Part shown: piece by piece, positions 2,931 to 58,929 of the stretch
Position numbering within the stretch: the first letter of the stretch is position 1
Layout: every line of letters begins with the position of its first letter
Source of the DNA: Candidatus Hermodarchaeota archaeon
GTDB lineage: Archaea; Asgardarchaeota; Hermodarchaeia; Hermodarchaeales; Hermodarchaeaceae
NCBI GenBank assembly: GCA_016839805.1
Contig: JAEOTO010000022.1
Location: 38,881 to 102,880 of the forward strand
Length of the DNA: 64,000 nucleotides
Reading direction: 5' to 3'
Translations under genes and position numbers: made by a program
The notes under the pieces: generated by a model
Databases searched by the model: none
Seen by the model: the letters and a program-made list of their open reading frames with translations, nothing else
Told to the model about the DNA's origin: nothing

Positions 2931-2968
2931 AGTCCTTACCATAGAGCACTCAACTGAAGTGATGCTTT

Positions 2969-3409
2969 ATGTCAAAATCTGGTGTCGCCCGTATCAGTAT
3001 CTCCCTCCCCCCGGGTCTGCTTGAAGAATTTGATCGAGTAACTTCAAATATCGGATATGATCGCTCTAAGGCAATTCAACAAGCAATGCGGGATTTTGTA
3101 TCAGAGTATCGGTGGGAATATGATAAGTTAGCCTCGGCGGTGGGAACAATCACGATTATTTTCGATCATGATATTCCTGGATTAGAGGGTGAACTTACAA
3201 GTATTCAGCATCAACATACTGACCTCATTACTTCAGCGACACATATTCACTTGGATAGTCATCATTGTCTCTTAGTAATCGTGGTGAAAGGAGAGGCATC
3301 AAAAATTAAGGGGTTGGCAACTCAATTACAGAGTTTGCGGGGTATTCATCAGTTGAAGATTACAAGTATGATGGATGAGGGGTCTGCCAAAAGCCCTCAT
3401 TCCCATTAA
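2969..3409 (+). CDS. nikR: nickel-responsive transcriptional regulator NikR
   Basis: N-terminal ribbon-helix-helix (RISISLP...RSKAIQQAMR); metal-binding domain QH...HIHLDSHHCL. Confidence 0.9.
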   Translation: MSKSGVARISISLPPGLLEEFDRVTSNIGYDRSKAIQQAMRDFVSEYRWEYDKLASAVGTITIIFDHDIPGLEGELTSIQHQHTDLITSATHIHLDSHHCLLVIVVKGEASKIKGLATQLQSLRGIHQLKITSMMDEGSAKSPHSH

Positions 3410-3502
3410 TCATTCAGGTATTAGAGTAACTATAAACACAATGTCTGGGTGCTTTTCACTCTACGAACAATTTAGGTTTCATACTTTGATTAACAGGATT
3501 AG

Positions 3503-3898
3503 TTAAAGCCTTGACCACGCCCGTTGCACTGCTTCTCCTGTCATCTCGATTACGGGTTGCATCTTATCAGCTGGAGCAAATCCAAGTTCCGGAGCGATTT
3601 TCATAATTGATGTATGTGACACGTACACTTCCCTTGCTTCTTCATAGACAACAAAACTACACGGAAATAGGAGTCCTACATTGAATGAAACATCCAGTGC
3701 TGCTTTAGCAAATTTCGGTCCACAAACGCAAATCATCATGAAACGCGGATAATCTTTGACTCCTAATTTTTGTTCGAAAATCGTATGAAGCGATTTGCTT
3801 GCTAGTAATCCAAATCCTTCTTCTTGCACAATCTTCTCCACGTGTCTTACCGCCTCATCAAAATCCATGTTAAGTTTTTTCTTCAGAATCTCAACCAT
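3503..3898 (-). CDS. DUF302 family protein
   Basis: EEGFGLL, ICVCGPKFA, GLLFPCSFVVYE pattern. Confidence 0.8.
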   Translation of the reverse strand: MVEILKKKLNMDFDEAVRHVEKIVQEEGFGLLASKSLHTIFEQKLGVKDYPRFMMICVCGPKFAKAALDVSFNVGLLFPCSFVVYEEAREVYVSHTSIMKIAPELGFAPADKMQPVIEMTGEAVQRAWSRL

Positions 3899-38122: not shown

Positions 38123-39427
38123 TTGAAAGAGGAAACCACTATGCCATTCGACCTTACACCACTTTCTGGAACTGATGATCTCTTCGTGCCCAATTATCAG
38201 CAGAATATCTACCGCGTATTGCCAACTGCCTTACGTTGCCTGGGTGTCAGGATTGCCCGAGATGACCTCTTCGATCAACCCAATGTAGTAAAGCATCTCA
38301 AACAGAACAAGGCCCTAGATGCAGAAAGGGTTCTTGTCTGCATTGTAGACAGCTTAGGCGCTCAAAATATGCTCGGAACCAGAATAGGGACCTTCCTGCG
38401 TGACTTGGATTTTCTGACGCTGAGTAGTACTTTTCCAACGATTACATCAGCTGCCATACCCAGTATTACCTTTGGGGTTCCTCCCACCACTCATGGAATC
38501 TTTGGTCATGTCGTCTATTTCCAAGAATATGGGTCACTAATAGACACTCTGAAGATGTCGGGGTACAAACTCCGATATAGAGATGCAATTCCTCATGCCG
38601 GTATCGATGTACGAGCACTCCTCTGGACTGAAGGAATATCGACAATCCTACAACAAACACATCCTTCGCTTGTAGTCGCTGAAGGCTTACCTCAGGAGAT
38701 CCCAGGGACTGGCCTTGGGCGGTTTTATGTTCGAAGAGAGAATGTGATCTCCTTCAATGGTTTCATTGACGCCTTTGGAATAGTGCGGCGAGTCTTTGAC
38801 CACTTTCCGAGTCAACAGCTTTTTATGACCCTCTATTTCCCCCAAATTGATACACTAGCACACAAATACGGATCCAATTCTTCAGAATTCAAAGCAGGAT
38901 GCAATGCATTCCAACGGCAACTCCATGCCTTCTTAGAAAGTCTTCCTGCATCCCAAGCTAAACACACTACAATAATATTATGTGCCGATCACGGGCAAAA
39001 TCCGCTTCGAGAGGACCAGACAATTGTCTTAACTCAAGATCAACTTGCTGAAGTTAAGGGTACCCTAAAAGTTCCTCCCGGACATTCCGGTCGAGTCAAT
39101 CACTTCTATTGTCAATCTGCCAGAAAACGACGAAAACTAAAACAATGGCTCCTAGAACATGTAGAGGATCGAGCACTAATTTTCGACGAAAAAGATCTTA
39201 ATCAAGCTCAGCTTCTTCCCGTTCCAAGTTCAAAACGAATAATCCAACGACTTGGGGATCTATTACTCATCGCTCGAGATGGTGCAACACTAAGAGTCGA
39301 ACGCGAAAATGATTCAGGTGAGCCTTGGGGGCTCCTTCCTAGTCAAGGGCTGGTGGCTAATCATGGATCACTCACTGCTGACGAGCTCTTAACGCCCTTT
39401 GTCGCATTCAATGCAGCAAAGGTGTGA
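38123..39427 (+). CDS. alkaline phosphatase superfamily (nucleotide pyrophosphatase/phosphodiesterase) protein
   Basis: IVDSLG, STFPTITS (Thr nucleophile), HGIFG, IDTLAHKYG, CADHG, NHGS; likely start ATG at 38141. Confidence 0.85.
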   Translation: MKEETTMPFDLTPLSGTDDLFVPNYQQNIYRVLPTALRCLGVRIARDDLFDQPNVVKHLKQNKALDAERVLVCIVDSLGAQNMLGTRIGTFLRDLDFLTLSSTFPTITSAAIPSITFGVPPTTHGIFGHVVYFQEYGSLIDTLKMSGYKLRYRDAIPHAGIDVRALLWTEGISTILQQTHPSLVVAEGLPQEIPGTGLGRFYVRRENVISFNGFIDAFGIVRRVFDHFPSQQLFMTLYFPQIDTLAHKYGSNSSEFKAGCNAFQRQLHAFLESLPASQAKHTTIILCADHGQNPLREDQTIVLTQDQLAEVKGTLKVPPGHSGRVNHFYCQSARKRRKLKQWLLEHVEDRALIFDEKDLNQAQLLPVPSSKRIIQRLGDLLLIARDGATLRVERENDSGEPWGLLPSQGLVANHGSLTADELLTPFVAFNAAKV

Positions 39428-49028: not shown

Positions 49029-49664
49029 ATGCCCCTGCCACAGAATATGCAACCAGACAACAATGATTCAAATTCAAGAAATAATGCGACATCAGAGAAA
49101 CTAACAGTGTATCCGGTGTATGTCTACCGGAGGACTTGTAAGCAAATATTCGATTTCTGCCTTCAAGAGGCAAAACGTAAACCCCCGCGTGAAGCGTTAG
49201 GTGTAATTCTAGGCTTCCGCCGGTCTTGGCAAGGTGAGAATTACATACGGGTCACTGATTGGGCGACAGGACGTGTTGAAGCTAGTATAGCGTATGCTCG
49301 ATTTACCCCAGAGGGTATTTTGGAATATCGCCTTGCATTACATGATCGGTACGGAGCGAATCCACATACCCCGCGGGTTGTTGGCCTCTGGCACTCTCAC
49401 CCTTTTGGTGGAGACCCTCACTTTTCATCTACTGATTTACGGACCTTCTTCAACACTCCCTTTTGTGCCGAAGGCAACGTGTTCTTTCTCATCGATCCCT
49501 TAAGTCGTATCTTCAAAGTTTACATGCTGCGTCCACGACTCGAAGAACCTGGTCTGCAACTCGAACGGGTTGATTGGTGTACGTATCAACCCTCGGTTCC
49601 TTTGGGTGATGCACCGCCAATCGAGGATCAGCTGCACGATGAGGAGCCTGTGGAAGATGAGTAA
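49029..49664 (+). CDS. JAB/MPN+ (JAMM) metalloprotease, putative Ubl-processing/deconjugating enzyme
   Basis: REALGVILG (catalytic Glu) and VGLWHSHP-x7-S-x2-D intact JAMM motif; LIDP. Confidence 0.92.
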   Translation: MPLPQNMQPDNNDSNSRNNATSEKLTVYPVYVYRRTCKQIFDFCLQEAKRKPPREALGVILGFRRSWQGENYIRVTDWATGRVEASIAYARFTPEGILEYRLALHDRYGANPHTPRVVGLWHSHPFGGDPHFSSTDLRTFFNTPFCAEGNVFFLIDPLSRIFKVYMLRPRLEEPGLQLERVDWCTYQPSVPLGDAPPIEDQLHDEEPVEDE

Positions 49665-50523
49665 GAAGAAGCCGACATCTATCGAATTACGGTTTTTTGA
49701 ACGTGACCAACATGATCGTACACGTCGTTGGTTAGGAGCGACTAACCTTGATACTATTCGACAATCCACTGTCCTTATGGTCGGGGCTGGTGCTGTGGGA
49801 AATGAAGTCTGTAAAAACCTAGGGTTGTTGGGTGTTGGGAAAATCATCCTTGTTGATCCTGATAAAGTTGCGGCATCTAATCTGAATCGGTGTGTGTTTT
49901 TCCGACCTGGCGATCATGATATTAAATTCAAAGTGGAGGCTGTAGCTGAGCGATTACCCGAACTCGCTACAACCACGGTGGTGGAACCACATGCGGTGCC
50001 AATCCAACACGCACCTGATACGGTGTGGGACGTGGATTTAGTTATCGTAGGTGTAGACAACCATTATGCCCGATACCTGTTGAATGCTAAGAATCTTAGC
50101 TTAGATCCCCCTCGCCTCATCATTAATGGGGCAATGGGGAAAGACCACATATCAGTAGAAGTCTTGGGTCCACCTCACACAGCCTGCATGATCTGTTCCT
50201 GGAGCAAAGACTTTGTAGACCATGTTGTAGCCAACGAAGTCCGCACTCAGTGCGACCCCTTTTTTGTGGACACAGTACCACGATTTCCCATGGTCAGCTT
50301 TGTGACATCCATCGTAGGCGCTGTCATGGCGTGGGAAGCCACTCGAGTTCTGGTTGGGTTGCAACAATGGCAGAATACTGGTCAATGGCAGCAAGGGCTC
50401 GAACCCGCATTTGGTCGGTTCATCCAATACAATCTTAGTAATCACCAGGCGAGTACTGGACCCATTATGCCCAATCCTCGATGCAGTGAAACCTTCTGCC
50501 GTGACAAACGCAAACACCTCTAA
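49657..50523 (+). CDS. ThiF/MoeB-family E1-like Ubl-activating enzyme
   Basis: VGAGAVG, D.D.V..SNLNR, K..A, GVDN..AR, CMIC, downstream Cys (TQCD, putative catalytic), C-terminal CSETFC; ATG at 49657 overlaps the JAB stop. Confidence 0.92.
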   Translation: MSKKKPTSIELRFFERDQHDRTRRWLGATNLDTIRQSTVLMVGAGAVGNEVCKNLGLLGVGKIILVDPDKVAASNLNRCVFFRPGDHDIKFKVEAVAERLPELATTTVVEPHAVPIQHAPDTVWDVDLVIVGVDNHYARYLLNAKNLSLDPPRLIINGAMGKDHISVEVLGPPHTACMICSWSKDFVDHVVANEVRTQCDPFFVDTVPRFPMVSFVTSIVGAVMAWEATRVLVGLQQWQNTGQWQQGLEPAFGRFIQYNLSNHQASTGPIMPNPRCSETFCRDKRKHL

Positions 50524-50538
50524 CAGACTGAGACAGAT

Positions 50539-52143
50539 TTAGATGAGTCCGATCGTTTTTTGCCATACTGTGGATGTAGGTTTCTGATCCGCCCAAAGTC
50601 GAAGATTCAAAATAACCTGTTTTGCAGCCTGAGGCATTGAGACGTTTAAATGCACGTTAACCGGTGCATTCAAACGTGGTGTAAACGGTTCAATTGCCAC
50701 GACCTGGTCCATCAATCCATCCGAAAGGGTGACCGTCATCACCATTTGATCAAGTGGATAAGATCCTGTCCGTGAAGGAGTTAATGAGACAGTCATAGGT
50801 AACCGACTCCCCCGAGGTACGGCATCAGGAACCTTCACATGAAGTTGTGCCGGGGCTGCACTTAGTCGAGGTGCCCCAGAATCAGGGACACTTATTACAC
50901 GGCTAACCTTCCAATTGGTGTTGATTTTCGGCTCCGATTTCCCGCGCTTCTTCTCGTCAATAAATTTCGCCCGATAATACCAACTTACTTTGAATTCTTG
51001 ACGAATCCGCGTATCCATCCAATTTCCAATAATCAATGGAAGATGACGATTGGTGACACCCAATAAACCCATTGATCCATGCCAGGTGGGATCAACAGGA
51101 ATCCATTGACCACGAAGCCAAATCTGACTCCAAGCATGGCGTTCCCACGCCTTGCCGTCAAAAGCCAATCCTGCTTCTAACCGGGCAGGAATTTTATTTG
51201 CACGGCACAACGCCGTAAACAACGCTGCATATTCTGTGCAATCCCCGACTTGATTTTCAATGGCATACGCTGCTCCCCTTTCATATTTTTGCGGGGTATA
51301 CCTCATCTTGTTAGTAACCGTCTGCATCGCAGCTTTAGTGTACTGAATTGGAGTTTTGTGCACCTTAGCTAGATCTCGGGCTAAGTCTTTGATTAAATGG
51401 TGGTGGCTTTCAATGAAGTTCTCTGGTTTCGTATATCGTTCGATATGCTGTGGAACCTCTGAACTAAGTGTGGTTGGGGGAAGATTGTATCGAACGGCAC
51501 GGTTGCGTACCAATGCTGTATAGCCACATTTGAACACTTTTCCTACCGGTAAGACGTCATGCGAAAATCGGATCCAGTTATTTCCGATGAGATCATTTTG
51601 TTCGCGACCTGATGTTGGAGAAAACTTAACATCGAGGATGTCCTGGCGAGGTGGTATCGATGGGGGCATCGCTATGAATGCGTTAATGTTTCCAATTTCA
51701 TATGGCGTACGATTCTTGAGGCTAACCGTATAGTTCACTCGGTGAATGACGATTGGTGGATGTCCAGCTTTAACAAAGAAGCAGCCCAAAACGTGGTGAT
51801 TATCTGGCGGGCCTTTGTTAGGGTCTTTGTCGACAACAAGCTTCTTGATTTTAGTTTCTTGAAATGCAACGAGAACGGTGTAGATGCCAGAAAGAAGGGT
51901 TTTCTTGGTTGGTAAGGAAAATTGTCCAAAATTCGTCTTGTCAAACCGGAAGGGTACTTTACTGATGGGCTTTCCAAAGGGATCGACGATATAGACTATA
52001 CCAGTGTCAATTTTCATGTTAGTGGTGACGGAACTGGTACGTGTCAGCTGAATAGTGATGGATTGACCAGCATTTACGCTTGGCATTCCATCATGACGGG
52101 ATGAAGTGATAATCTGCAAGGACACAGGAAGACCCTTTTTCAT
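50539..52143 (-). CDS. transglutaminase-like (Cys-His-Asp) protein with flanking beta-sandwich-like domains
   Basis: GDCTEYA.LF.ALCRA..IPAR, HAW, W.PVDPTW; ATGA overlap with the upstream gene. Confidence 0.85.
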   Translation of the reverse strand: MKKGLPVSLQIITSSRHDGMPSVNAGQSITIQLTRTSSVTTNMKIDTGIVYIVDPFGKPISKVPFRFDKTNFGQFSLPTKKTLLSGIYTVLVAFQETKIKKLVVDKDPNKGPPDNHHVLGCFFVKAGHPPIVIHRVNYTVSLKNRTPYEIGNINAFIAMPPSIPPRQDILDVKFSPTSGREQNDLIGNNWIRFSHDVLPVGKVFKCGYTALVRNRAVRYNLPPTTLSSEVPQHIERYTKPENFIESHHHLIKDLARDLAKVHKTPIQYTKAAMQTVTNKMRYTPQKYERGAAYAIENQVGDCTEYAALFTALCRANKIPARLEAGLAFDGKAWERHAWSQIWLRGQWIPVDPTWHGSMGLLGVTNRHLPLIIGNWMDTRIRQEFKVSWYYRAKFIDEKKRGKSEPKINTNWKVSRVISVPDSGAPRLSAAPAQLHVKVPDAVPRGSRLPMTVSLTPSRTGSYPLDQMVMTVTLSDGLMDQVVAIEPFTPRLNAPVNVHLNVSMPQAAKQVILNLRLWADQKPTSTVWQKTIGLI

Positions 52144-52532
52144 AATGCTTTTCCTTCATCATCTGGATCTGAATCGTTGGGTTCCCTCTCCTTATCTTGG
52201 AGAATAACTACTTTTCCTCCTTTCTTCTTTGGGGGTCCCATTCGCTGAACATTCCCAAGAATCACAATACTAGACCCTTCTTCACCCATCATTTCATCAT
52301 TTGTTGGTCGGGGACCAAGGAACTGGGTGAAATGAGGAGGGTGTGGTTCAACTCCTCTGACAATAGTTCCGGGACAGATACCATCTCCAGATTCTAAGAA
52401 AATCACTCGGCAGTTAGGGCACATATAGCTTCCACAGGTTGTGCAAATCCACCAAGTCCTTCGTGCTTCATCAAGTGGAACTTGGGCATCACAGGCAACA
52501 CATTTCATTTGTGAGGCGCCGTACACACTCAC
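52140..52532 (-). CDS. RING-like zinc-finger protein (putative E3) with disordered SIM-like tail
   Basis: CVAC-x15-CTTC-x4-CPNC-x11-CP...H; tail contains SIVIL and KVVILQD plus acidic residues. Confidence 0.65.
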   Translation of the reverse strand: MSVYGASQMKCVACDAQVPLDEARRTWWICTTCGSYMCPNCRVIFLESGDGICPGTIVRGVEPHPPHFTQFLGPRPTNDEMMGEEGSSIVILGNVQRMGPPKKKGGKVVILQDKEREPNDSDPDDEGKAL

Positions 52533-52756
52533 TCTTCAGGCTCCTCCTTATCTGGATGTTTGCGGGCTCGGTGAACTTTCACATCAAAATGAGGAGAAAA
52601 GTTTGGGGGACGTTCTTCTTCAAATGGAATATCCCGTTCTTCTAAGATGACGATACGATTCAATGAGGATGGGTGCTCTGATGGATCTTGATTATCCTTA
52701 TCAGATTCATGCTTCTCTTTTTCTACCTTAGGTGGGGGTTCCGTCATCTTGAGCAC
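52529..52756 (-). CDS. small acidic/disordered protein with RIVILEE motif
   Basis: 75 aa ORF abutting the E2 stop and overlapping the next start (GTGA); fills the operon gap. Confidence 0.55.
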   Translation of the reverse strand: MLKMTEPPPKVEKEKHESDKDNQDPSEHPSSLNRIVILEERDIPFEEERPPNFSPHFDVKVHRARKHPDKEEPEE

Positions 52757-53521
52757 CTAACTTTCTTCATCTTTATCAGAATTCTCTAGGATTCGGACTT
52801 TTGTTTGAAATCGCCTTTCCGGATCTTGGAGGATACGGGGAGGTCGTCGACTCGGGCTAGCTTCTGTGGATTGCGGTTCTAAAATTGTCACACGACCCTC
52901 TCTAGGTGGTGAAGGTGCTCCTATTTGGTGCCTTTCCTCCCAAAGACGCTCCAAAGTATTCACGATATTTTCTGAATCCTTCTCATACCAAGCCATTGCC
53001 ATACTGTTAAGCCCATGATCGGATTGGAATTGTGATGGTGGTTCAACACGATCAGGCTTTAGTAAAATAAAGAAAGGCAAGTCTTCTAGAATTCGATCCA
53101 ATTCTCCTCTGACTGAATAACATGCTTGTCCCTTTCCACTGGCAGCTAACCGGGGATGATAAAGCTGAGTTTCCGCTGCGGGACGAATCGAGCCAATATT
53201 TTGGGGATATTCTCGGGGAAGATCAAAGATAAACCGATGTTCATACTGAATGGCTCGCTGGTCGGTCAGCGTTCCTGGCTCATGAATATACCCGGGAAGA
53301 TTTCGCATAGTAAACTGAACGCGTTTATAGGCTCCATCTCGGTATCGGGCACTAATCGCGACCGTGAAATCAGAATTACTCCAACTAGTATCCTCACGCC
53401 GTGGTGGATCGGGAGGCCAACCCCGGCGTCCATACAAATTATTCATGGTATCAAAGAACGTCTGGATTTGTGTTTCGACTCGGGCGTTAAAGAGTTCCGG
53501 TGAAAACACTGGTCGTGTCAT
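52757..53521 (-). CDS. UBC/E2-like ubiquitin-conjugating enzyme
   Basis: F.FDLPREYP, TQLYHPRL...GQAC (HPN-like motif plus catalytic Cys), LN..A..WY; disordered C-terminal tail. Confidence 0.8.
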   Translation of the reverse strand: MTRPVFSPELFNARVETQIQTFFDTMNNLYGRRGWPPDPPRREDTSWSNSDFTVAISARYRDGAYKRVQFTMRNLPGYIHEPGTLTDQRAIQYEHRFIFDLPREYPQNIGSIRPAAETQLYHPRLAASGKGQACYSVRGELDRILEDLPFFILLKPDRVEPPSQFQSDHGLNSMAMAWYEKDSENIVNTLERLWEERHQIGAPSPPREGRVTILEPQSTEASPSRRPPRILQDPERRFQTKVRILENSDKDEES

Positions 53522-53580: not shown

Positions 53581-53904
53581 TTAGAATCCCACTTCAGGCA
53601 CTACATCGAGGAGGAAGAACTCATCATCTGAAATTTTGGGATCTAGTTCGCCAAAGGTGGCACCAGGGCTTAGTCGAGTGGGTTCCGGGGCTTTGCGGAT
53701 TAAGACAAACTCAGGACGTTGGTCACCAATTTTTGCCTTCGCCCAATCGTCAATACTTACACCTTCATCTCGAGCTTGGGTGACGAGGGTGCGGATGACT
53801 TCTTCAACTCGAGTGTCTTCATCAATCCCAATGCGAAATTCCTTTTGGCGAGGTTCAACGTCAACAATGATTGAGCGCCAAAAACCTTCTTCACTGCTCA
53901 TCAT
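53581..53904 (-). CDS. ubiquitin-like (beta-grasp) protein ending ...PEVG-F
   Basis: Beta-beta-alpha pattern (IIVDV..FRIGI.EDTRVEEVIRTL); LSPGATFGEL...ISDDEFFLL echoes ubiquitin [20 protein letters not shown]; penultimate Gly; first gene of the E2 operon. Confidence 0.7.
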   Translation of the reverse strand: MMSSEEGFWRSIIVDVEPRQKEFRIGIDEDTRVEEVIRTLVTQARDEGVSIDDWAKAKIGDQRPEFVLIRKAPEPTRLSPGATFGELDPKISDDEFFLLDVVPEVGF

Positions 53905-54144: not shown

Positions 54145-57045
54145 ATGACACCTAGGCAAGAGCCATCACCCTCAATATCACCCTTAGTATTTCGTAAGCT
54201 ACGCCTAGTGAACTTTGTCATTCACCGTGATACAACCATTCAGTTGGATAGCGCTCCCATCACATTAATCACAGGTTCCAATGGCAGTGGAAAAACTCTC
54301 ATCCTCGATGCATTACTCTTTGCCATTGGGGTTGATTCTCGCCGCGCGCAACGGCAACGAAACGCGGCCTTCATTGGACAATTTGATAAACATGCTGAAG
54401 TCAATTTAGAACTCAACAACTTCCAACTCAACGGTCGGCGTGTCCTACGGAGCCCAGACCCAAGCTTATCAAAGCTCCTTAATAATGACGTAGTGACGAT
54501 TCGCCTTCGAATTTACCCAGGTAATCGGATCGCCTATTGGCTCAATGAGCAACGTTCCATCAACGGTCACCCGATAACCCGAAAGGATATCCGGAAACTC
54601 TTTCGAGCAGCTGGTCTTTTTGGTGACTCTCCTTTAGCCATTACAGAAGCAGAAACTTTAGACCATTTTGCCTCGCAATCACCTCGCCGCAAATTCGAGA
54701 CATTACTCAATGAAACCGGGTTACGAAACTGGATGGAGAAACTTGAAGAAGCCCGACTCCTAGTCCTTCAAGCCCAGGCAAACGTCAAACCCCTCCAATA
54801 TCGTATTCGACATGAAGAACAACGCCTTCAACTCTTAAAAACCGCCTACGCAGCCTTTCAACAAAAACAACAACTCCAAGAACGCCTCCAAGAACTCGAC
54901 CTTGAAGCAGCTTGGTCAGAAGTAGCTTATCGAGAAGGATTGGTTGAACAACTTCAATCGCAGATGAATGAAATTCAAGCTCAATTTACTATGGAACGTG
55001 AAAAATTAACAAAGCTTGATAATCGAAGAGCTGAACTCGTTTCAAAGTATGAAACTGTACAACAGCAACGACAAAAGCTTCAAACCACAATGGAGACAGT
55101 TCGCGATCAGCTTATGCAAGCGAAAGGACACCGGCTAGGACTCGAAAACGAACTAACCAGTGTCAATACGCAAATGAAACGTTACACAACAACCAAACGT
55201 CGAAAACCTGCGAAAACCAAACACGAGACTTTACAACGCGAATTTGCTGCTTTCACCAAGGAACGTGATGACCTTGATGATCAATTAGATAACTTGCGTC
55301 AAGATATCGCTTTCACAGAGGAGGAATTATTTACTACACCACAACGGTTTCCACGTTTCGAAGAAAGTATCCTGCGTGCTTGTCAACGATATCGTGAAGA
55401 ATTAGACAAGATCGCACTATCGGCTTCAGTAATTGGTCCTCTGTTCTCTCTTATACAGATGAAACGTGATTATGAGGAGTATGAAACTGCCGTCAAGCTC
55501 GCAATGGGTAGGTACACTTACGCATTCATCGCCTTGGATCGTAATGCTTTCAGTGAAGCTAAGAGCTTATTCGATCGCCTTTGGCCTTCTGAAAAACCAG
55601 ATTTAGTGGTAGCTCGGACCAACCCAACAACCGCGGTAACTCACGATCGTCCTGAAGTATCTCCACCTGTTTTTGGTTGGGCTGCAGATCTAATTGAAGG
55701 GGATGTTTATGCAGTTAGTTTTCTCAGTCGTGTTGTTAATACAGCAGTCGCTGAAGAATCTGCAGATCCCAACGAGTTAGTTGATGCCACCCAACAATTG
55801 AAAGGAAATATCATCACGAGTGATGGGACGAGTTTTTACCTGCGAATTGGGGCTTTCGCCCGACCACCTCGCCCTGTAACCGTCCGGTTATCTACTGCTC
55901 TCCGGGAATTAGGACTGACTCAGGAAAGTAGTGTAATTAGACAACGGCTTCGAAAATCACGAGAAGACGAAGCCCGTTTAATGCAAGATCGCATGCGCTT
56001 GAATTCTGAAATTAGCCAACTACGCTTACAGCTTCAGGATTTACGGCAAGCAGGTTCCGCTGCCTTATCTGATGAAGAACGCACCTCGATTCTAGTGGAT
56101 TTAGAACGGCGTTCAGCAGACCTGCAACAGCAGATACTAGAATTAGATGTACGCTGTGATACCCTTGCCCAAGATAGCCAGGTTTGCAATTCTGATATGC
56201 TTCCCTTAATTTCTCGAATGCAAAAGTTGGACAGACAATTAGAAAATTTAGATCATCGCCGGTCGCGGCGGACAGCTGAGGTTGAACGAATTACTGACGA
56301 ACTTCGTCAACGTGAGGAAGAATTTACACACCTCAATACACAAGTGAAAGAGTTTCGAAAAAATGCGGAGAAGCTGGGTAATCGTCCTGCAAGCATACGA
56401 ACCCCCTCGGCTGTAAGAGACGAGCAATTACAGCTTCAGGCAATGATTGAAACAATTACAGCGACGGCAGAGGACCTTCATGCCTTCGAAACACAAGAAG
56501 AAATTGTCCAACAACTTCATGATTACCTAAAAGAGCGTAAACTACATTTAGAAAATTTGATGACGGATGTCGACAGGCGCTTAATCAAATGGCGAGAAGA
56601 ACTCGAAACGACAATTGAGAAATTAAACCAGCGAATGAATCAACTCCTCAGCCACTTCCTCAAACAGGTAAAACTCCAAGTTCGGTATCCTGATGAACCT
56701 AGCCGGGCAGAACTGAATCTCCAACTAGCGATTAACCGGAAAGAACAATGGCGAACCTATCAAGAGATGTCTGGCGGCGAACGGGTCCTAGCCACCCAAA
56801 CCTTTATCCTCGCACTTCACACTTTGGCGAAAAGCCCTCTGCACGTTATTGATGAATTTACCCAACGATTAGACGAAGCTAGTCGGGCAGCAGTTCTCAG
56901 TGTGGTTCAACGTACTCTCGATTTAACTCACATTGAGACGCTCATTCATCCCCAGTTCCTACTTATGGCTCCCTCTACCGTTGGTCTTCAGATTCCAGAG
57001 ACCATGCATCATATCATTTTGCTCAAAGGACAGGTGAAACCATGA
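54145..57045 (+). CDS. SMC-family ATPase, Smc5/6-like
   Basis: Walker A GSNGSGKT; two long coiled coils; central hinge VIGPLFSLI...AVKLAMG...AF; signature MSGGER; Walker B HVIDEF; D-loop TQRLD; QFLLMAP. Confidence 0.88.
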   Translation: MTPRQEPSPSISPLVFRKLRLVNFVIHRDTTIQLDSAPITLITGSNGSGKTLILDALLFAIGVDSRRAQRQRNAAFIGQFDKHAEVNLELNNFQLNGRRVLRSPDPSLSKLLNNDVVTIRLRIYPGNRIAYWLNEQRSINGHPITRKDIRKLFRAAGLFGDSPLAITEAETLDHFASQSPRRKFETLLNETGLRNWMEKLEEARLLVLQAQANVKPLQYRIRHEEQRLQLLKTAYAAFQQKQQLQERLQELDLEAAWSEVAYREGLVEQLQSQMNEIQAQFTMEREKLTKLDNRRAELVSKYETVQQQRQKLQTTMETVRDQLMQAKGHRLGLENELTSVNTQMKRYTTTKRRKPAKTKHETLQREFAAFTKERDDLDDQLDNLRQDIAFTEEELFTTPQRFPRFEESILRACQRYREELDKIALSASVIGPLFSLIQMKRDYEEYETAVKLAMGRYTYAFIALDRNAFSEAKSLFDRLWPSEKPDLVVARTNPTTAVTHDRPEVSPPVFGWAADLIEGDVYAVSFLSRVVNTAVAEESADPNELVDATQQLKGNIITSDGTSFYLRIGAFARPPRPVTVRLSTALRELGLTQESSVIRQRLRKSREDEARLMQDRMRLNSEISQLRLQLQDLRQAGSAALSDEERTSILVDLERRSADLQQQILELDVRCDTLAQDSQVCNSDMLPLISRMQKLDRQLENLDHRRSRRTAEVERITDELRQREEEFTHLNTQVKEFRKNAEKLGNRPASIRTPSAVRDEQLQLQAMIETITATAEDLHAFETQEEIVQQLHDYLKERKLHLENLMTDVDRRLIKWREELETTIEKLNQRMNQLLSHFLKQVKLQVRYPDEPSRAELNLQLAINRKEQWRTYQEMSGGERVLATQTFILALHTLAKSPLHVIDEFTQRLDEASRAAVLSVVQRTLDLTHIETLIHPQFLLMAPSTVGLQIPETMHHIILLKGQVKP

Positions 57046-57839
57046 TGGATACTAATGATACCTCAGTACATCGCCGTGTTTTTTCTGATCGTAAGATATG
57101 GCGAAAAACCTCGAAACGAAATTACAAGAAATATCGTGTCCCCTCTTATGGTACAAAGAGTGTCATCATCACTCTTTGGGATTTAACAAAGAAATACGAA
57201 ATTGCCTTGAAGCATAAAGAGGTATTTCCGATCAAAGAGTCTGAGATTGACCGTGAAGAAGTCACTGATGCATTTCATCTCCTGGAAACTCCTTGGGAAC
57301 GAAATCTTGATGGTCGATTTTATCACACTCTTTCCACTATGGTCCATCGCCGTGATTCTCAACTGGCTACCCCTGAAATCACATCCGAGCAATGGATTCA
57401 TCAGTTCGCAAATGTCGTCAAACGTCGGGCAACCCCATTACTTTTTCTTATCAGCCCTGAGCGATCCGTGCCACCTTTTGATCTACCACCAGTTGATTCT
57501 CCTGTCACACTAGCTGAACCACCTTCCCGTGATGACCGCATCGCATTGCAGAAGCATAAAGTGCCATTCGAAGAAGTTTCATTCACCTCATTAGAAACCC
57601 GGCGGAGTAGATTAGTCAAACGTTTACAGGGAAAACGATTCAAGTACTCGGAGTTAGCTGACCATCTCTCCAATTGGGAACTAGACCTTCTTAGCCAGAT
57701 GATCCGGGATAATTCCTTACCAGCGATTTTTGATAAAACCTCGGTAACGTTTCGTGAAGTGGCGTTCTCCAAATCAAATTCTGCATTCTCAGCTGTGGCA
57801 ATTGCAGCAAAGAAGTACGAGGAGGTCACGTCGCAATGA
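57042..57839 (+). CDS. putative kleisin (ScpA/Nse4-like) subunit
   Basis: Directly after SMC with ATGA overlap; helical N-part, Pro-rich linker, C-terminal winged-helix-like VSFTSLETRRSRLVKRL...FKYSEL; assignment is mostly positional. Confidence 0.45.
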   Translation: MMDTNDTSVHRRVFSDRKIWRKTSKRNYKKYRVPSYGTKSVIITLWDLTKKYEIALKHKEVFPIKESEIDREEVTDAFHLLETPWERNLDGRFYHTLSTMVHRRDSQLATPEITSEQWIHQFANVVKRRATPLLFLISPERSVPPFDLPPVDSPVTLAEPPSRDDRIALQKHKVPFEEVSFTSLETRRSRLVKRLQGKRFKYSELADHLSNWELDLLSQMIRDNSLPAIFDKTSVTFREVAFSKSNSAFSAVAIAAKKYEEVTSQ

Positions 57840-58477
57840 CAACAGATCCAGCAGAACCTAAAGATACAACTCTTGTGATAGAAGAAGCAGAAGATGAAGC
57901 ACTGGAACAACGCCATCTCCTAGGTCAACTCTTTGCCGCACTCACAGCTCGATATCGTGATGATGATGGCCATCTGAATGTCGGTGTAAAACGCCAAGAT
58001 TTACTTGAAGCACTCCACGTAAATAAGACCGGGTTAAACCGCCTTCTCGACCTGCTCCGCCAACAAATTACATCACTCGGGCTGGAACTTGTTGAATATC
58101 GCCTTGGTCGAGACACCCTCTATTGCATTCGAACACTCTATGGTGTTCCCGGGGAACTCACAGATCCTGAATACGCAGTCTTAGGTGTCATTATTGCCAC
58201 CATTGAGCAGGCAAGCAAAAGGCGGCGACCTCGTCGAATTGCCACAAAAGATCTCGAAACTATGCTAGTAGCCCGGGGGCGAATTTCCCGCTACCAACTG
58301 GATCGAATTCTACGCCGGCTCATCGAATTAGGTTATGTCACCCGAACTGCTCGATGCATCGCCTATGGACCACGCTTAGAACTAGAATTTGATGCGGAAC
58401 GCCGTGAAGCCATCGCGAGTGCTGCCACAATATACCTTGCTGGAGCCATCGCCCAATCAGAAGGTGACACCGAATGA
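57836..58477 (+). CDS. KITE-family tandem winged-helix protein (Nse1/Nse3-MAGE/ScpB-like)
   Basis: L...I.SLGLELVE, LT..E.A.L..I, L.RL.ELGYV and YGPRL.LE resemble Nse1/MAGE WH-A/WH-B motifs; ATGA overlap. Confidence 0.65.
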   Translation: MTTDPAEPKDTTLVIEEAEDEALEQRHLLGQLFAALTARYRDDDGHLNVGVKRQDLLEALHVNKTGLNRLLDLLRQQITSLGLELVEYRLGRDTLYCIRTLYGVPGELTDPEYAVLGVIIATIEQASKRRRPRRIATKDLETMLVARGRISRYQLDRILRRLIELGYVTRTARCIAYGPRLELEFDAERREAIASAATIYLAGAIAQSEGDTE

Positions 58478-58929
58478 AACTCGATTTATCAACGGTGGGC
58501 ATCTCTTGTGTCGCCTGTGGAACACGGACTACATTAGAACATGCTATCCAGGAGGGCTGGCACCAATGCCTTCGTTGCCAGTTTTTCATCGACCCCCAAT
58601 GCCTCCACATCGTTCAAACTACAATGGGAGGCGTGTGTCCAGCTTTCAGTCAAGGAGTTCCACGCCACACGCTTCAACCCGCGGACATCCCCTCCGAACA
58701 AATCTTAATCTTTGTGAAAGATCAATATCAAAAAGGTCGTGTCGGGGCCCTCATAGATACTCTCTTTTACACACAACGGCTCCCTCTCTCTCCACCTCAA
58801 CATGACTCAAAATATAAAGGGCCTTCCGAAGAGCCGCTGACCCGTGAAGAGATTTGGCAGCGCTATGGCTTAGTATTGGTACGAAGGGCTCACGGAAAAT
58901 GGGTCACTTGGGAAAAAATTCTATTTTAA
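58474..58929 (+). CDS. RING-like zinc-finger protein, paralog of 52140..52532
   Basis: CVAC-x16-CLRC-x4-DPQC-x11-CP...GV..H; ATGA overlap with the KITE gene. Confidence 0.6.
   Translation: MKLDLSTVGISCVACGTRTTLEHAIQEGWHQCLRCQFFIDPQCLHIVQTTMGGVCPAFSQGVPRHTLQPADIPSEQILIFVKDQYQKGRVGALIDTLFYTQRLPLSPPQHDSKYKGPSEEPLTREEIWQRYGLVLVRRAHGKWVTWEKILF

Follow-up and report, generated by a model that had tools for sequence, protein, structure and literature searches.

We describe a short linear motif that is repeated six times in the disordered parts of three consecutive proteins encoded by a ubiquitin-like protein (Ubl) operon of an Asgard archaeon. The operon lies in a stretch of 64,000 nucleotides (hereafter the window), which represents positions 38881–102880 of contig C10 in a 2.3-Mb metagenome-assembled genome of a member of the Hermodarchaeota. 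The three carriers, all encoded on the minus strand, are a 254-amino-acid (aa) E2-like enzyme (52757..53521), a 75-aa protein referred to here as p75 (52529..52756) and a 130-aa RING-like zinc-finger protein (52140..52532). The motif, with the consensus [G/S/N]-[R/K]-[V/I]-x-I-L-[E/D/Q/G], is a real, conserved and operon-restricted short linear motif, a hallmark of a rare Ubl system of the Asgard archaea. It very probably serves as a docking handle, and we put the probability that it docks by strand addition onto the cognate Ubl (53581..53904, minus strand) at about 0.5.

Three of the six copies are found in the tail of the E2-like enzyme, one in p75 and two in the tail of the RING-like protein; the motif is usually preceded by a basic linker. 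In the E2-like enzyme, copy 1 (GRVTILE, residues 209–215; 52877..52897, minus strand) has R210, I213 and L214 conserved in at least 90% of the 30 orthologs, and its flanks vary. Copy 2 (PRILQD, residues 228–233; 52823..52840, minus strand) is a short variant that reads PRIL[DEQ] in most orthologs and is missing from one subclade (P0047, P0049 and P0050). Copy 3 (KVRILEN, residues 241–247; 52781..52801, minus strand), followed by an acidic C-terminus, is conserved as VRIL[DE], with I244 kept in at least 90% of the sequences, and is the counterpart of a near-C-terminal copy that is present across the whole E2 family. The p75 copy (NRIVILEE, residues 33–40; 52637..52660, minus strand) has the form [NK][RP]I[VI][IV]L.E in 81 of the 86 homologs. 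In the tail of the RING-like protein, copy 1 (SIVILGN, residues 88–94; 52251..52271, minus strand) belongs to a conserved S.V.IL.DV.R pattern, in which L92 is invariant and D94, V95 and R97 reach at least 90% conservation. Copy 2 (GKVVILQD, residues 106–113; 52194..52217, minus strand), which precedes an acidic tail, is conserved as GG[KR]V[VI]IL.D, with G106 and V108 invariant and L111 at least 90% conserved, and obtains the highest score in the whole genome with a position-specific scoring matrix (PSSM) for the motif. Five of the six copies fit a psi-x-psi-psi core, PRILQD being shorter. Among the ortholog instances the three core columns are V/I in 100%, I in 92% and L in 93%, and core position 1 is Val or Ile in all 105 instances.

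All six peptides named in the first-pass annotation of this DNA, which had noticed a repeated motif in the disordered parts of three consecutive Ubl-operon proteins, are indeed present. The strict pattern that it gave, [RK][VI]xIL[EQ], fits four of them; PRILQD and SIVILGN are looser variants. In the AlphaFold2 (AF2) models, residues 203–254 of the E2-like enzyme and 80–130 of the RING-like protein have predicted local distance difference test (pLDDT) values below 50, compared with more than 90 for the cores, and in the monomer models neither tail is confidently docked on its own core. The p75 copy is flanked by low-complexity sequence.

Within these variable tails, the motif copies stand out as islands of conservation at 17 Hermodarchaeota loci with the same synteny. 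When 30 E2, 18 RING-like and 19 p75 orthologs are aligned, motif positions are 80–100% conserved, as against 20–40% in the flanks and the rest of the tails. Genome-wide, the strict pattern has 11 matches in the 688,383 residues of open reading frames (ORFs) of at least 80 aa, three of which are in the E2-like and RING-like proteins; with a further match in the 75-aa ORF, four of the ∼ 12 matches in the genome fall within 459 residues, where 0.007 would be expected. The other matches lie inside folded domains, for example the Walker-B-like KILILDE. The strict pattern was defined after the data had been seen, and the conservation therefore serves as the independent test. Two of the checks that had been proposed for the motif, its frequency in the genome and its retention in orthologs, came out in its favour, the latter extending to four Asgard families and down to ∼ 35% identity of the E2-like proteins.

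The motif is confined to this system. A genome-wide scan with the PSSM built from the ortholog instances found no further match in a disordered context, which speaks against a proteome-wide network of proteins with SUMO-interacting motifs (SIMs). The motif is also absent from the canonical ubiquitin-ESCRT cluster on contig C47 of the same genome and, judging from the ortholog alignment, from the tails of the JAMM peptidase encoded in the Ubl operon. The N-terminal TLVIEEAEDE of the neighbouring KITE protein (57869–57898), which had been listed as a possible further copy, is not conserved in 12 orthologs. Several other candidates were considered and dropped. A kleisin segment, RIALQKHKVPFEE, resembles RIVILEERDIPFEE of p75, but kleisin orthologs read QQAMRRHRIPFKD and similar, so that the likeness is coincidental. 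The conserved WKV.RV[VI]S[VI]P[DE] of the Hermodarchaeota transglutaminase-fold protein (TGase) is devoid of the I-L pair and is probably the last strand of its domain. Among known classes of short motifs, judged by their consensus sequences, the PP1-binding RVxF class requires Phe or Trp at the final position, the cyclin-binding RxL class fits two copies and no more, and the PIP-box and HbYX classes bear no resemblance to the motif.

When 1.8 billion representative proteins were searched with a profile of the E2-like enzyme, 53 relatives were found in total, and among 400 Asgard species genomes the enzyme is encoded in 32, which belong to four families only. The psi-x-psi-psi core is found in 20 of the 27 representatives (at most 50% identical) that have a tail, and in 11 of these 20 it lies within three residues of the C-terminus, typically after a Lys/Arg-rich linker, giving such endings as ...KKVVILED, ...GKVKILE, ...GGLQILD and three GGIRII-type copies. 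Across the family, the upstream flank is basic and conserved (mean charge of +2.4 over eight residues) and the downstream flank is approximately neutral (–0.4); acidic residues downstream are a feature of Hermodarchaeota alone. In one of the other families (f12), the motif takes the form [IV]-[KR]-I-[IL] and is embedded in Lys-rich linkers.

The proteins that bear the motif differ from lineage to lineage, and the motif stays constant. In f12 and at locus L022, SMC, kleisin, KITE, zinc-finger, JAMM, E1, Ubl, E2 and p75 genes form an array on one strand; in f12 a RING-TGase gene pair lies ∼ 6 kb away and encodes a RING-like protein with two or three copies and a TGase with two copies in its linker (TVKIID and KIKILV). 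At locus L023, the order is zinc finger, JAMM, E1, Ubl, E2, p75, RING and TGase, and the TGase linker contains PQILAPE and PRIIKPK; such linker copies are not clearly seen in the Hermodarchaeota TGases. Family f2 has Ubl, E2, p75 and TGase only. Tail-less E2-like proteins also exist, and their operons, of the types E1-Ubl-E2-p62 and E1-p80-Ubl-E2, retain the motif on the p75 homolog. The minimal operons, at loci L029 and L030, consist of E1, Ubl, E2 and p75 genes alone. Ubl and E1 are always present and never carry the motif; JAMM is usually present. At L025 (contig C13 of genome G082), L022 and L023, the SMC-kleisin-KITE-zinc-finger genes and the JAMM-E1-Ubl-E2-p75 genes make up a single one-strand array; the occurrence of this array in other Asgard families indicates that the link between the Smc5/6-like complex and the Ubl system is older than Hermodarchaeota. 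In addition, L031 contains a natural Ubl-E2 fusion (2940–3845, P0090) in which the Ubl end, ...VVGG, runs directly into the N-terminal helix of the E2, and at L024 (5603–6546) the Ubl ORF continues into the E2 N-terminus in another frame, representing either a fusion or a frameshift.

Of the carriers, the E2-like enzyme consists of a UBC-fold core (residues 1–200) and the disordered tail with its three copies. The fold is indicated by the AF2 model, which Foldseek matches to UBC9, Ube2G and Rad6 in PDB (E-value 1e-4, probability 1.0, target TM-score ∼ 0.53); there is no Pfam match, UQ_con included, and profile sequence searches of the E2-like enzyme and of the Ubl against PDB returned nothing meaningful. 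His122-Pro123-Arg124 and Cys134 are invariant, the latter at the spacing of ∼ 10 residues after the HPN-type motif that is expected for the catalytic Cys of UBC-type E2 enzymes. The replacement of HPN by HPR and the lack of a UQ_con match make this protein a divergent member of the UBC fold.

The RING-like protein has a confidently modelled, cross-brace-like zinc-binding core (residues 5–75) and a tail (residues 80–130) with two copies of the motif. In the VIA-align comparison, the list is dominated by RING and U-box domains with Z-scores of at most 5.2, its top rows being the RNF4 RING (Z 5.2), a U-box, Ring1b and the Nse1 RING (Z 4.5), whereas Foldseek found no match to the model at E-values up to 1e-3. 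Pfam zf-UDP, a RING finger, gives sub-threshold matches in 14 of the 18 orthologs, with the best E-value of 4e-6. On these middling scores we refer to the modelled zinc finger as RING-like, not as a proven RING. The zinc-finger protein encoded at the end of the adjacent SMC operon (58474–58929, plus strand) proved by BLASTP to be its paralog, the two proteins having the zinc core in common; the SMC-side paralog has a folded-looking C-terminal domain in place of the disordered, motif-bearing tail.

The smallest carrier, p75, has no Pfam match and belongs to no known family. It starts with a variable acidic N-terminus, followed by a conserved segment of ∼ 30 residues in which the motif immediately precedes an invariant PPN element. 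This second conserved segment, RDIPFEEERPPNFSPHFDVKVHR (residues 41–63; 52568..52636, minus strand), in which P50, P51 and N52 are invariant and their neighbours nearly so, probably constitutes a second, putative binding element. Across the family, the element after the motif reads DIPFEEERPPNFSPHF.VKVHR and is better conserved than the motif itself; its PPN core is found in every one of the 86 homologs, including those from the most distant operons. In the latter, the motif reads KVIVLEE (L020), GLTILEE (L029) and KPVILAV (L030). All 86 homologs adjoin a member of this E2 family wherever the genomic context is known, and p75 looks like a universal fourth core component of the Ubl system, beside E1, Ubl and E2.

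The cognate Ubl (107 aa) is recognized by its context and by weak beta-grasp signals: YukD matches in 16 of 21 members, with E-values of at least 0.014, and ubiquitin-clan neighbours in the Atlas at 0.90. It is not detectably a SUMO, as it has neither a ubiquitin or Rad60-SLD match in Pfam nor a sequence match in PDB. It is the most conserved protein of the cluster (84–100% identity across Hermodarchaeota orthologs) and ends in ...VPEVG plus Phe, the pattern being ...VG plus 0–3 residues. Its net charge is –10 (–6 to –10 across the Ubls), and the beta1-beta2 hairpin region, VDVEPRQKEFR, is nearly invariant and kept in all lineages. Its invariant residues include R19, K21, R24, W54, K58, R70 and K71.

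The remaining genes of the operon include those for a JAMM/JAB peptidase (49029..49664, plus strand; Pfam Prok-JAB, E-value 5e-10), which is presumed to process and deconjugate the Ubl, and for a ThiF-type E1 (49570..50523, plus strand; Pfam ThiF, E-value 8e-34). As listed, the E1 ORF starts with TTG and shares ∼ 95 nt with the JAMM gene; its orthologs align from query residues 24–33 onwards, and the true start is therefore probably ∼ 25–30 codons past the listed TTG, at an ATG near 49639–49657. The TGase gene (50539..52143, minus strand; Pfam Transglut_core, E-value 6e-22) is translationally coupled to that of the RING-like protein. In a comparison of the window copy (50539–52143) with its orthologs, TGases come in a long form of ∼ 534–550 aa, in which the core is joined by an Ig-like domain at the N-terminus and another domain at the C-terminus, and a short, core-only form of ∼ 290 aa, both lengths being found among close Hermodarchaeota (the window, L003, L005, L007, L011, L014 and L015). 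A divergently transcribed operon on the other side (54145..58929, plus strand) encodes the SMC, kleisin-like, KITE and zinc-finger proteins, and the entire JAMM-to-SMC arrangement is syntenic in 17 other Hermodarchaeota genomes. Elsewhere in the genome, the canonical Asgard ubiquitin-ESCRT cluster (contig C47, 1–6686) encodes ubiquitin, two UQ_con E2/UEV proteins, a partial E1, a Vps4-like AAA ATPase and ESCRT-like proteins; this separate cluster indicates that two Ubl systems run in parallel in the organism.

A shared docking role is the natural reading of conserved motifs in otherwise variable tails. We propose that the six peptides are copies of one docking motif on Ubl-handling enzymes, each of which would form a short beta-strand that is added to the sheet edge of a shared partner. 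This partner would be the acidic Ubl, whether free, thioester-linked or already conjugated, and the motif would act on it as SIMs, LC3-interacting regions/ATG8-interacting motifs (LIR/AIM) and UFM1-interacting motifs (UFIM) act on SUMO, ATG8 and UFM1, respectively. Two or three copies per tail could then provide avidity for several Ubl molecules or conjugated targets and keep the E2, the E3 and the accessory proteins at the same Ubl-marked site. Since the minimal operons hold only E1, Ubl, E2 and p75, the receptor should be sought among the Ubl, E1 and the E2 core. The Ubl is the sole plausible common ligand for the E2-like, RING-like, p75 and TGase proteins and the most economical choice. In eukaryotic Ubls, the edge of the beta1-beta2 hairpin is where SIM, LIR and UFIM peptides bind, and the basic upstream flank of the motif (+2.4) complements the net charge of the Ubls (–6 to –10). 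Thus, the changing set of bearers, the composition of the minimal operons, the logic of a common ligand, the conserved hairpin and the complementary charges all favour docking onto the Ubl.

Several considerations weigh against this reading. We infer both the docking itself and the Ubl as the receptor, and the beta-grasp fold of the latter is suggested by weak sequence signals together with gene context. The charge logic of the SIMs, an acidic flank facing a basic groove of SUMO, fails family-wide. The extreme C-terminal position of many E2 copies could mean a carboxylate-reading pocket elsewhere, and the p75 copy, being part of a longer conserved segment, may have another mode of action than the copies in the tails. 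On the co-occurrence data, E1 or the E2 core are possible receptors as well. A complex prediction for the mature Ubl (residues 1–106) with residues 26–68 of p75 gave 0.45, 0.32 and 0.13 in individual runs, compared with 0.21 for a single control with an unrelated partner, and no interface was reported; these scores give no verdict on binding in either direction.

The last-named receptors make up the alternative that deserves most attention, although we regard it as somewhat unlikely: the tails would recruit the E2 to the ThiF-type E1, which has no ubiquitin-fold domain (UFD), or would attach the RING-like protein, p75 and the TGase to the backside of the E2 core. Docking peptides are known from UBA5-UFC1 and from Atg7-Atg3/Atg10, and backside binding from G2BR, U7BR and R6BD; additional E2-binding peptides in E3 enzymes are established knowledge. 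Both proteins are encoded in every operon, the minimal ones included, and an E1 that is ThiF-only by Pfam needs some means of recruiting its E2. There is, however, no obvious need for the RING-like protein, p75 or the TGase to bind E1, and on an E2-core receptor the one to three copies of the E2 itself would compete in cis; that AF2 leaves the E2 tail undocked (pLDDT below 50) counts weakly in the same direction. A receptor could be dispensed with altogether if the motifs paired with each other and homotypic or heterotypic beta-strand zippers co-assembled the E2, p75, RING-like and TGase proteins into a particle or condensate. The sharing of one motif by all the accessory proteins, the two or three copies in each tail and the flexible charged linkers would suit such an assembly, but four-residue aliphatic cores are short for a stable strand-strand contact, many family members have a single C-terminal copy and hence no multivalency, and the strict I-L pair with its conserved basic residue suggests a shaped pocket, which makes mutual pairing very unlikely in our view. 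Hardly better placed, and if anything slightly less probable, is docking of the enzymes on a substrate or scaffold, such as DNA or the neighbouring Smc5/6-like SMC-kleisin-KITE complex. The Ubl operon adjoins the SMC-kleisin-KITE-zinc-finger operon in Hermodarchaeota, f12 and L022, and the linkers are rich in Lys and Arg; yet the motif is retained at L020/L026, L029 and L030, whose flanks as read contain no SMC genes (6–10 kb where the contig allows, L030 being a 2.3-kb contig).

Two further readings bear on the resemblance to SUMO signalling. In the first-pass annotation, the combination of a RING with SIM-like motifs was likened to RNF4, which would make the RING-like protein a targeted ligase that reads chains of one modifier and writes another. 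Such a ligase would agree with the RING-like fold, with the RNF4 RING in the top row of the VIA-align list, with the two motif copies in the tail and with a separate canonical cluster of ubiquitin, E1 and E2 genes in the genome. Nevertheless, we consider it the least probable of all the possibilities discussed here: Z-scores of ∼ 5 are also reached by common arrangements, translational coupling ties the RING gene to its own E2, p75 and TGase genes in an operon with one Ubl, the domain order is the reverse of that in RNF4, and the canonical ubiquitin cluster is free of the motif. The presence of the same motif on E2 and p75 argues that it is a pathway-wide handle rather than the reader module of one ligase. 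A broader version of docking onto the Ubl, to which we assign a low probability, short of that given above to E1 or E2 cores, gives the motif the role of handle in a multivalent, SIM-like network for recognizing the Ubl, within an Asgard-specific conjugation system that is genomically tied to an Smc5/6-like complex, i.e. a prokaryotic counterpart of the SUMO-SIM logic that organizes the Smc5/6-Nse2, PIAS and SUMO-targeted ubiquitin ligase (STUbL) assemblies of eukaryotes. p75, with its motif and PPNFSPHF, might then be a minimal disordered E3/E4 that grips the donor Ubl and the E2, comparable to the tandem-SIM module of ZNF451 or the IR1 of RanBP2.

Eukaryotic signalling by ubiquitin, SUMO and ATG8 is characterized by short linear docking motifs, of which, to our knowledge, there are hardly any records from prokaryotes. 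In the present system, a single motif is shared by an E2, a zinc finger resembling an E3, the universal small partner protein p75 and, in some lineages, also a TGase-fold enzyme. Full-text searches of the literature returned no description of the motif, the E2 family or p75. Archaeal Smc5/6-related operons are described in a preprint on SMC evolution (10.1101/2024.01.07.573240), whose passages on ubiquitin, SUMO, operons and neighbours do not mention the adjacent Ubl operon. The system is rare, being restricted to four Asgard families, and usually lies beside an Smc5/6-like operon; p75 can now be defined as its apparent fourth core component. If the motif binds the Ubl, enzymes that read their own modifier non-covalently would be older than eukaryotes, and the motif would offer a simple, testable entry into an uncharacterised archaeal conjugation pathway.

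Among prokaryotic systems, a comparable operon is that of Caldiarchaeum subterraneum, which encodes ubiquitin, E1, E2, a small RING finger protein and Rpn11 (PMC5654768, PMC6043591). The likeness lies in the association of a Ubl, a ThiF-type E1, an E2, a small zinc-finger E3-like protein and a JAMM peptidase in one operon. However, the ubiquitin and UBC domains of that system are recognizable by Pfam, whereas the E2 described here has no Pfam match and HPR in place of HPN. The Caldiarchaeum system is not known to include a tail motif common to several proteins, a protein like p75 or a transglutaminase.

Peptides that bind the E2 backside or dock on E1 (gp78 G2BR, Cue1 U7BR and Rad18 R6BD; Atg3/Atg10-Atg7 and UBA5-UFC1) are similar to the motif in being accessory tethers outside the catalytic domains, but they are mostly helical and serve one protein pair each, whereas a single strand-type motif is seen here across three or four proteins. 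In comparison with STUbLs, the RING-like core is a model with Z-scores of at most 5.2 and sub-threshold Pfam matches, and the operon provides one Ubl with its own E2, which nothing connects to the separate canonical ubiquitin/UBC cluster on contig C47.

The SIMs of PIAS, RanBP2, ZNF451 and RNF4 are closer in form: they have a psi-x-psi-psi core, are disordered and often tandem, and occur on enzymes of the pathway, beside a RING-type domain. The hydrophobic core and the disorder of a SIM are thus found in the Asgard motif, as the first-pass annotation had it, but an acidic or phosphorylatable flank and a SUMO-family receptor are not. Acidic residues after the core are seen in Hermodarchaeota only, the f12 copies sit in Lys-rich linkers and the Ubls themselves are acidic, so that the charge rule of the SIMs does not hold. 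Instead, the conserved flank is basic and upstream, the I-L pair hardly varies, many copies lie at the very C-terminal end, and the modifier is not a detectable member of the SUMO/ubiquitin family. LIR/AIM and UFIM are likewise short peptides that form a strand and are located in flexible extensions of E1- or E2-type enzymes in non-ubiquitin Ubl pathways, and they add to the beta2 strand of the Ubl; the ATG8 and UFM1 pathways further resemble the present one in that their ThiF-like E1 is minimal and has no UFD and their Ubl ends in a single Gly (VG). They differ in that an LIR requires an aromatic residue ([WFY]) at position 1, where the motif has Val or Ile, and in that the UFM1 and ATG8 motifs are found on E1 or on receptors, as opposed to the E2, E3-like, adaptor and TGase proteins that carry the motif here. 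The closer analogies are therefore not with RNF4 but with the SIM-bearing pathway enzymes PIAS, ZNF451 and RanBP2, and with UBA5 and its UFIM.

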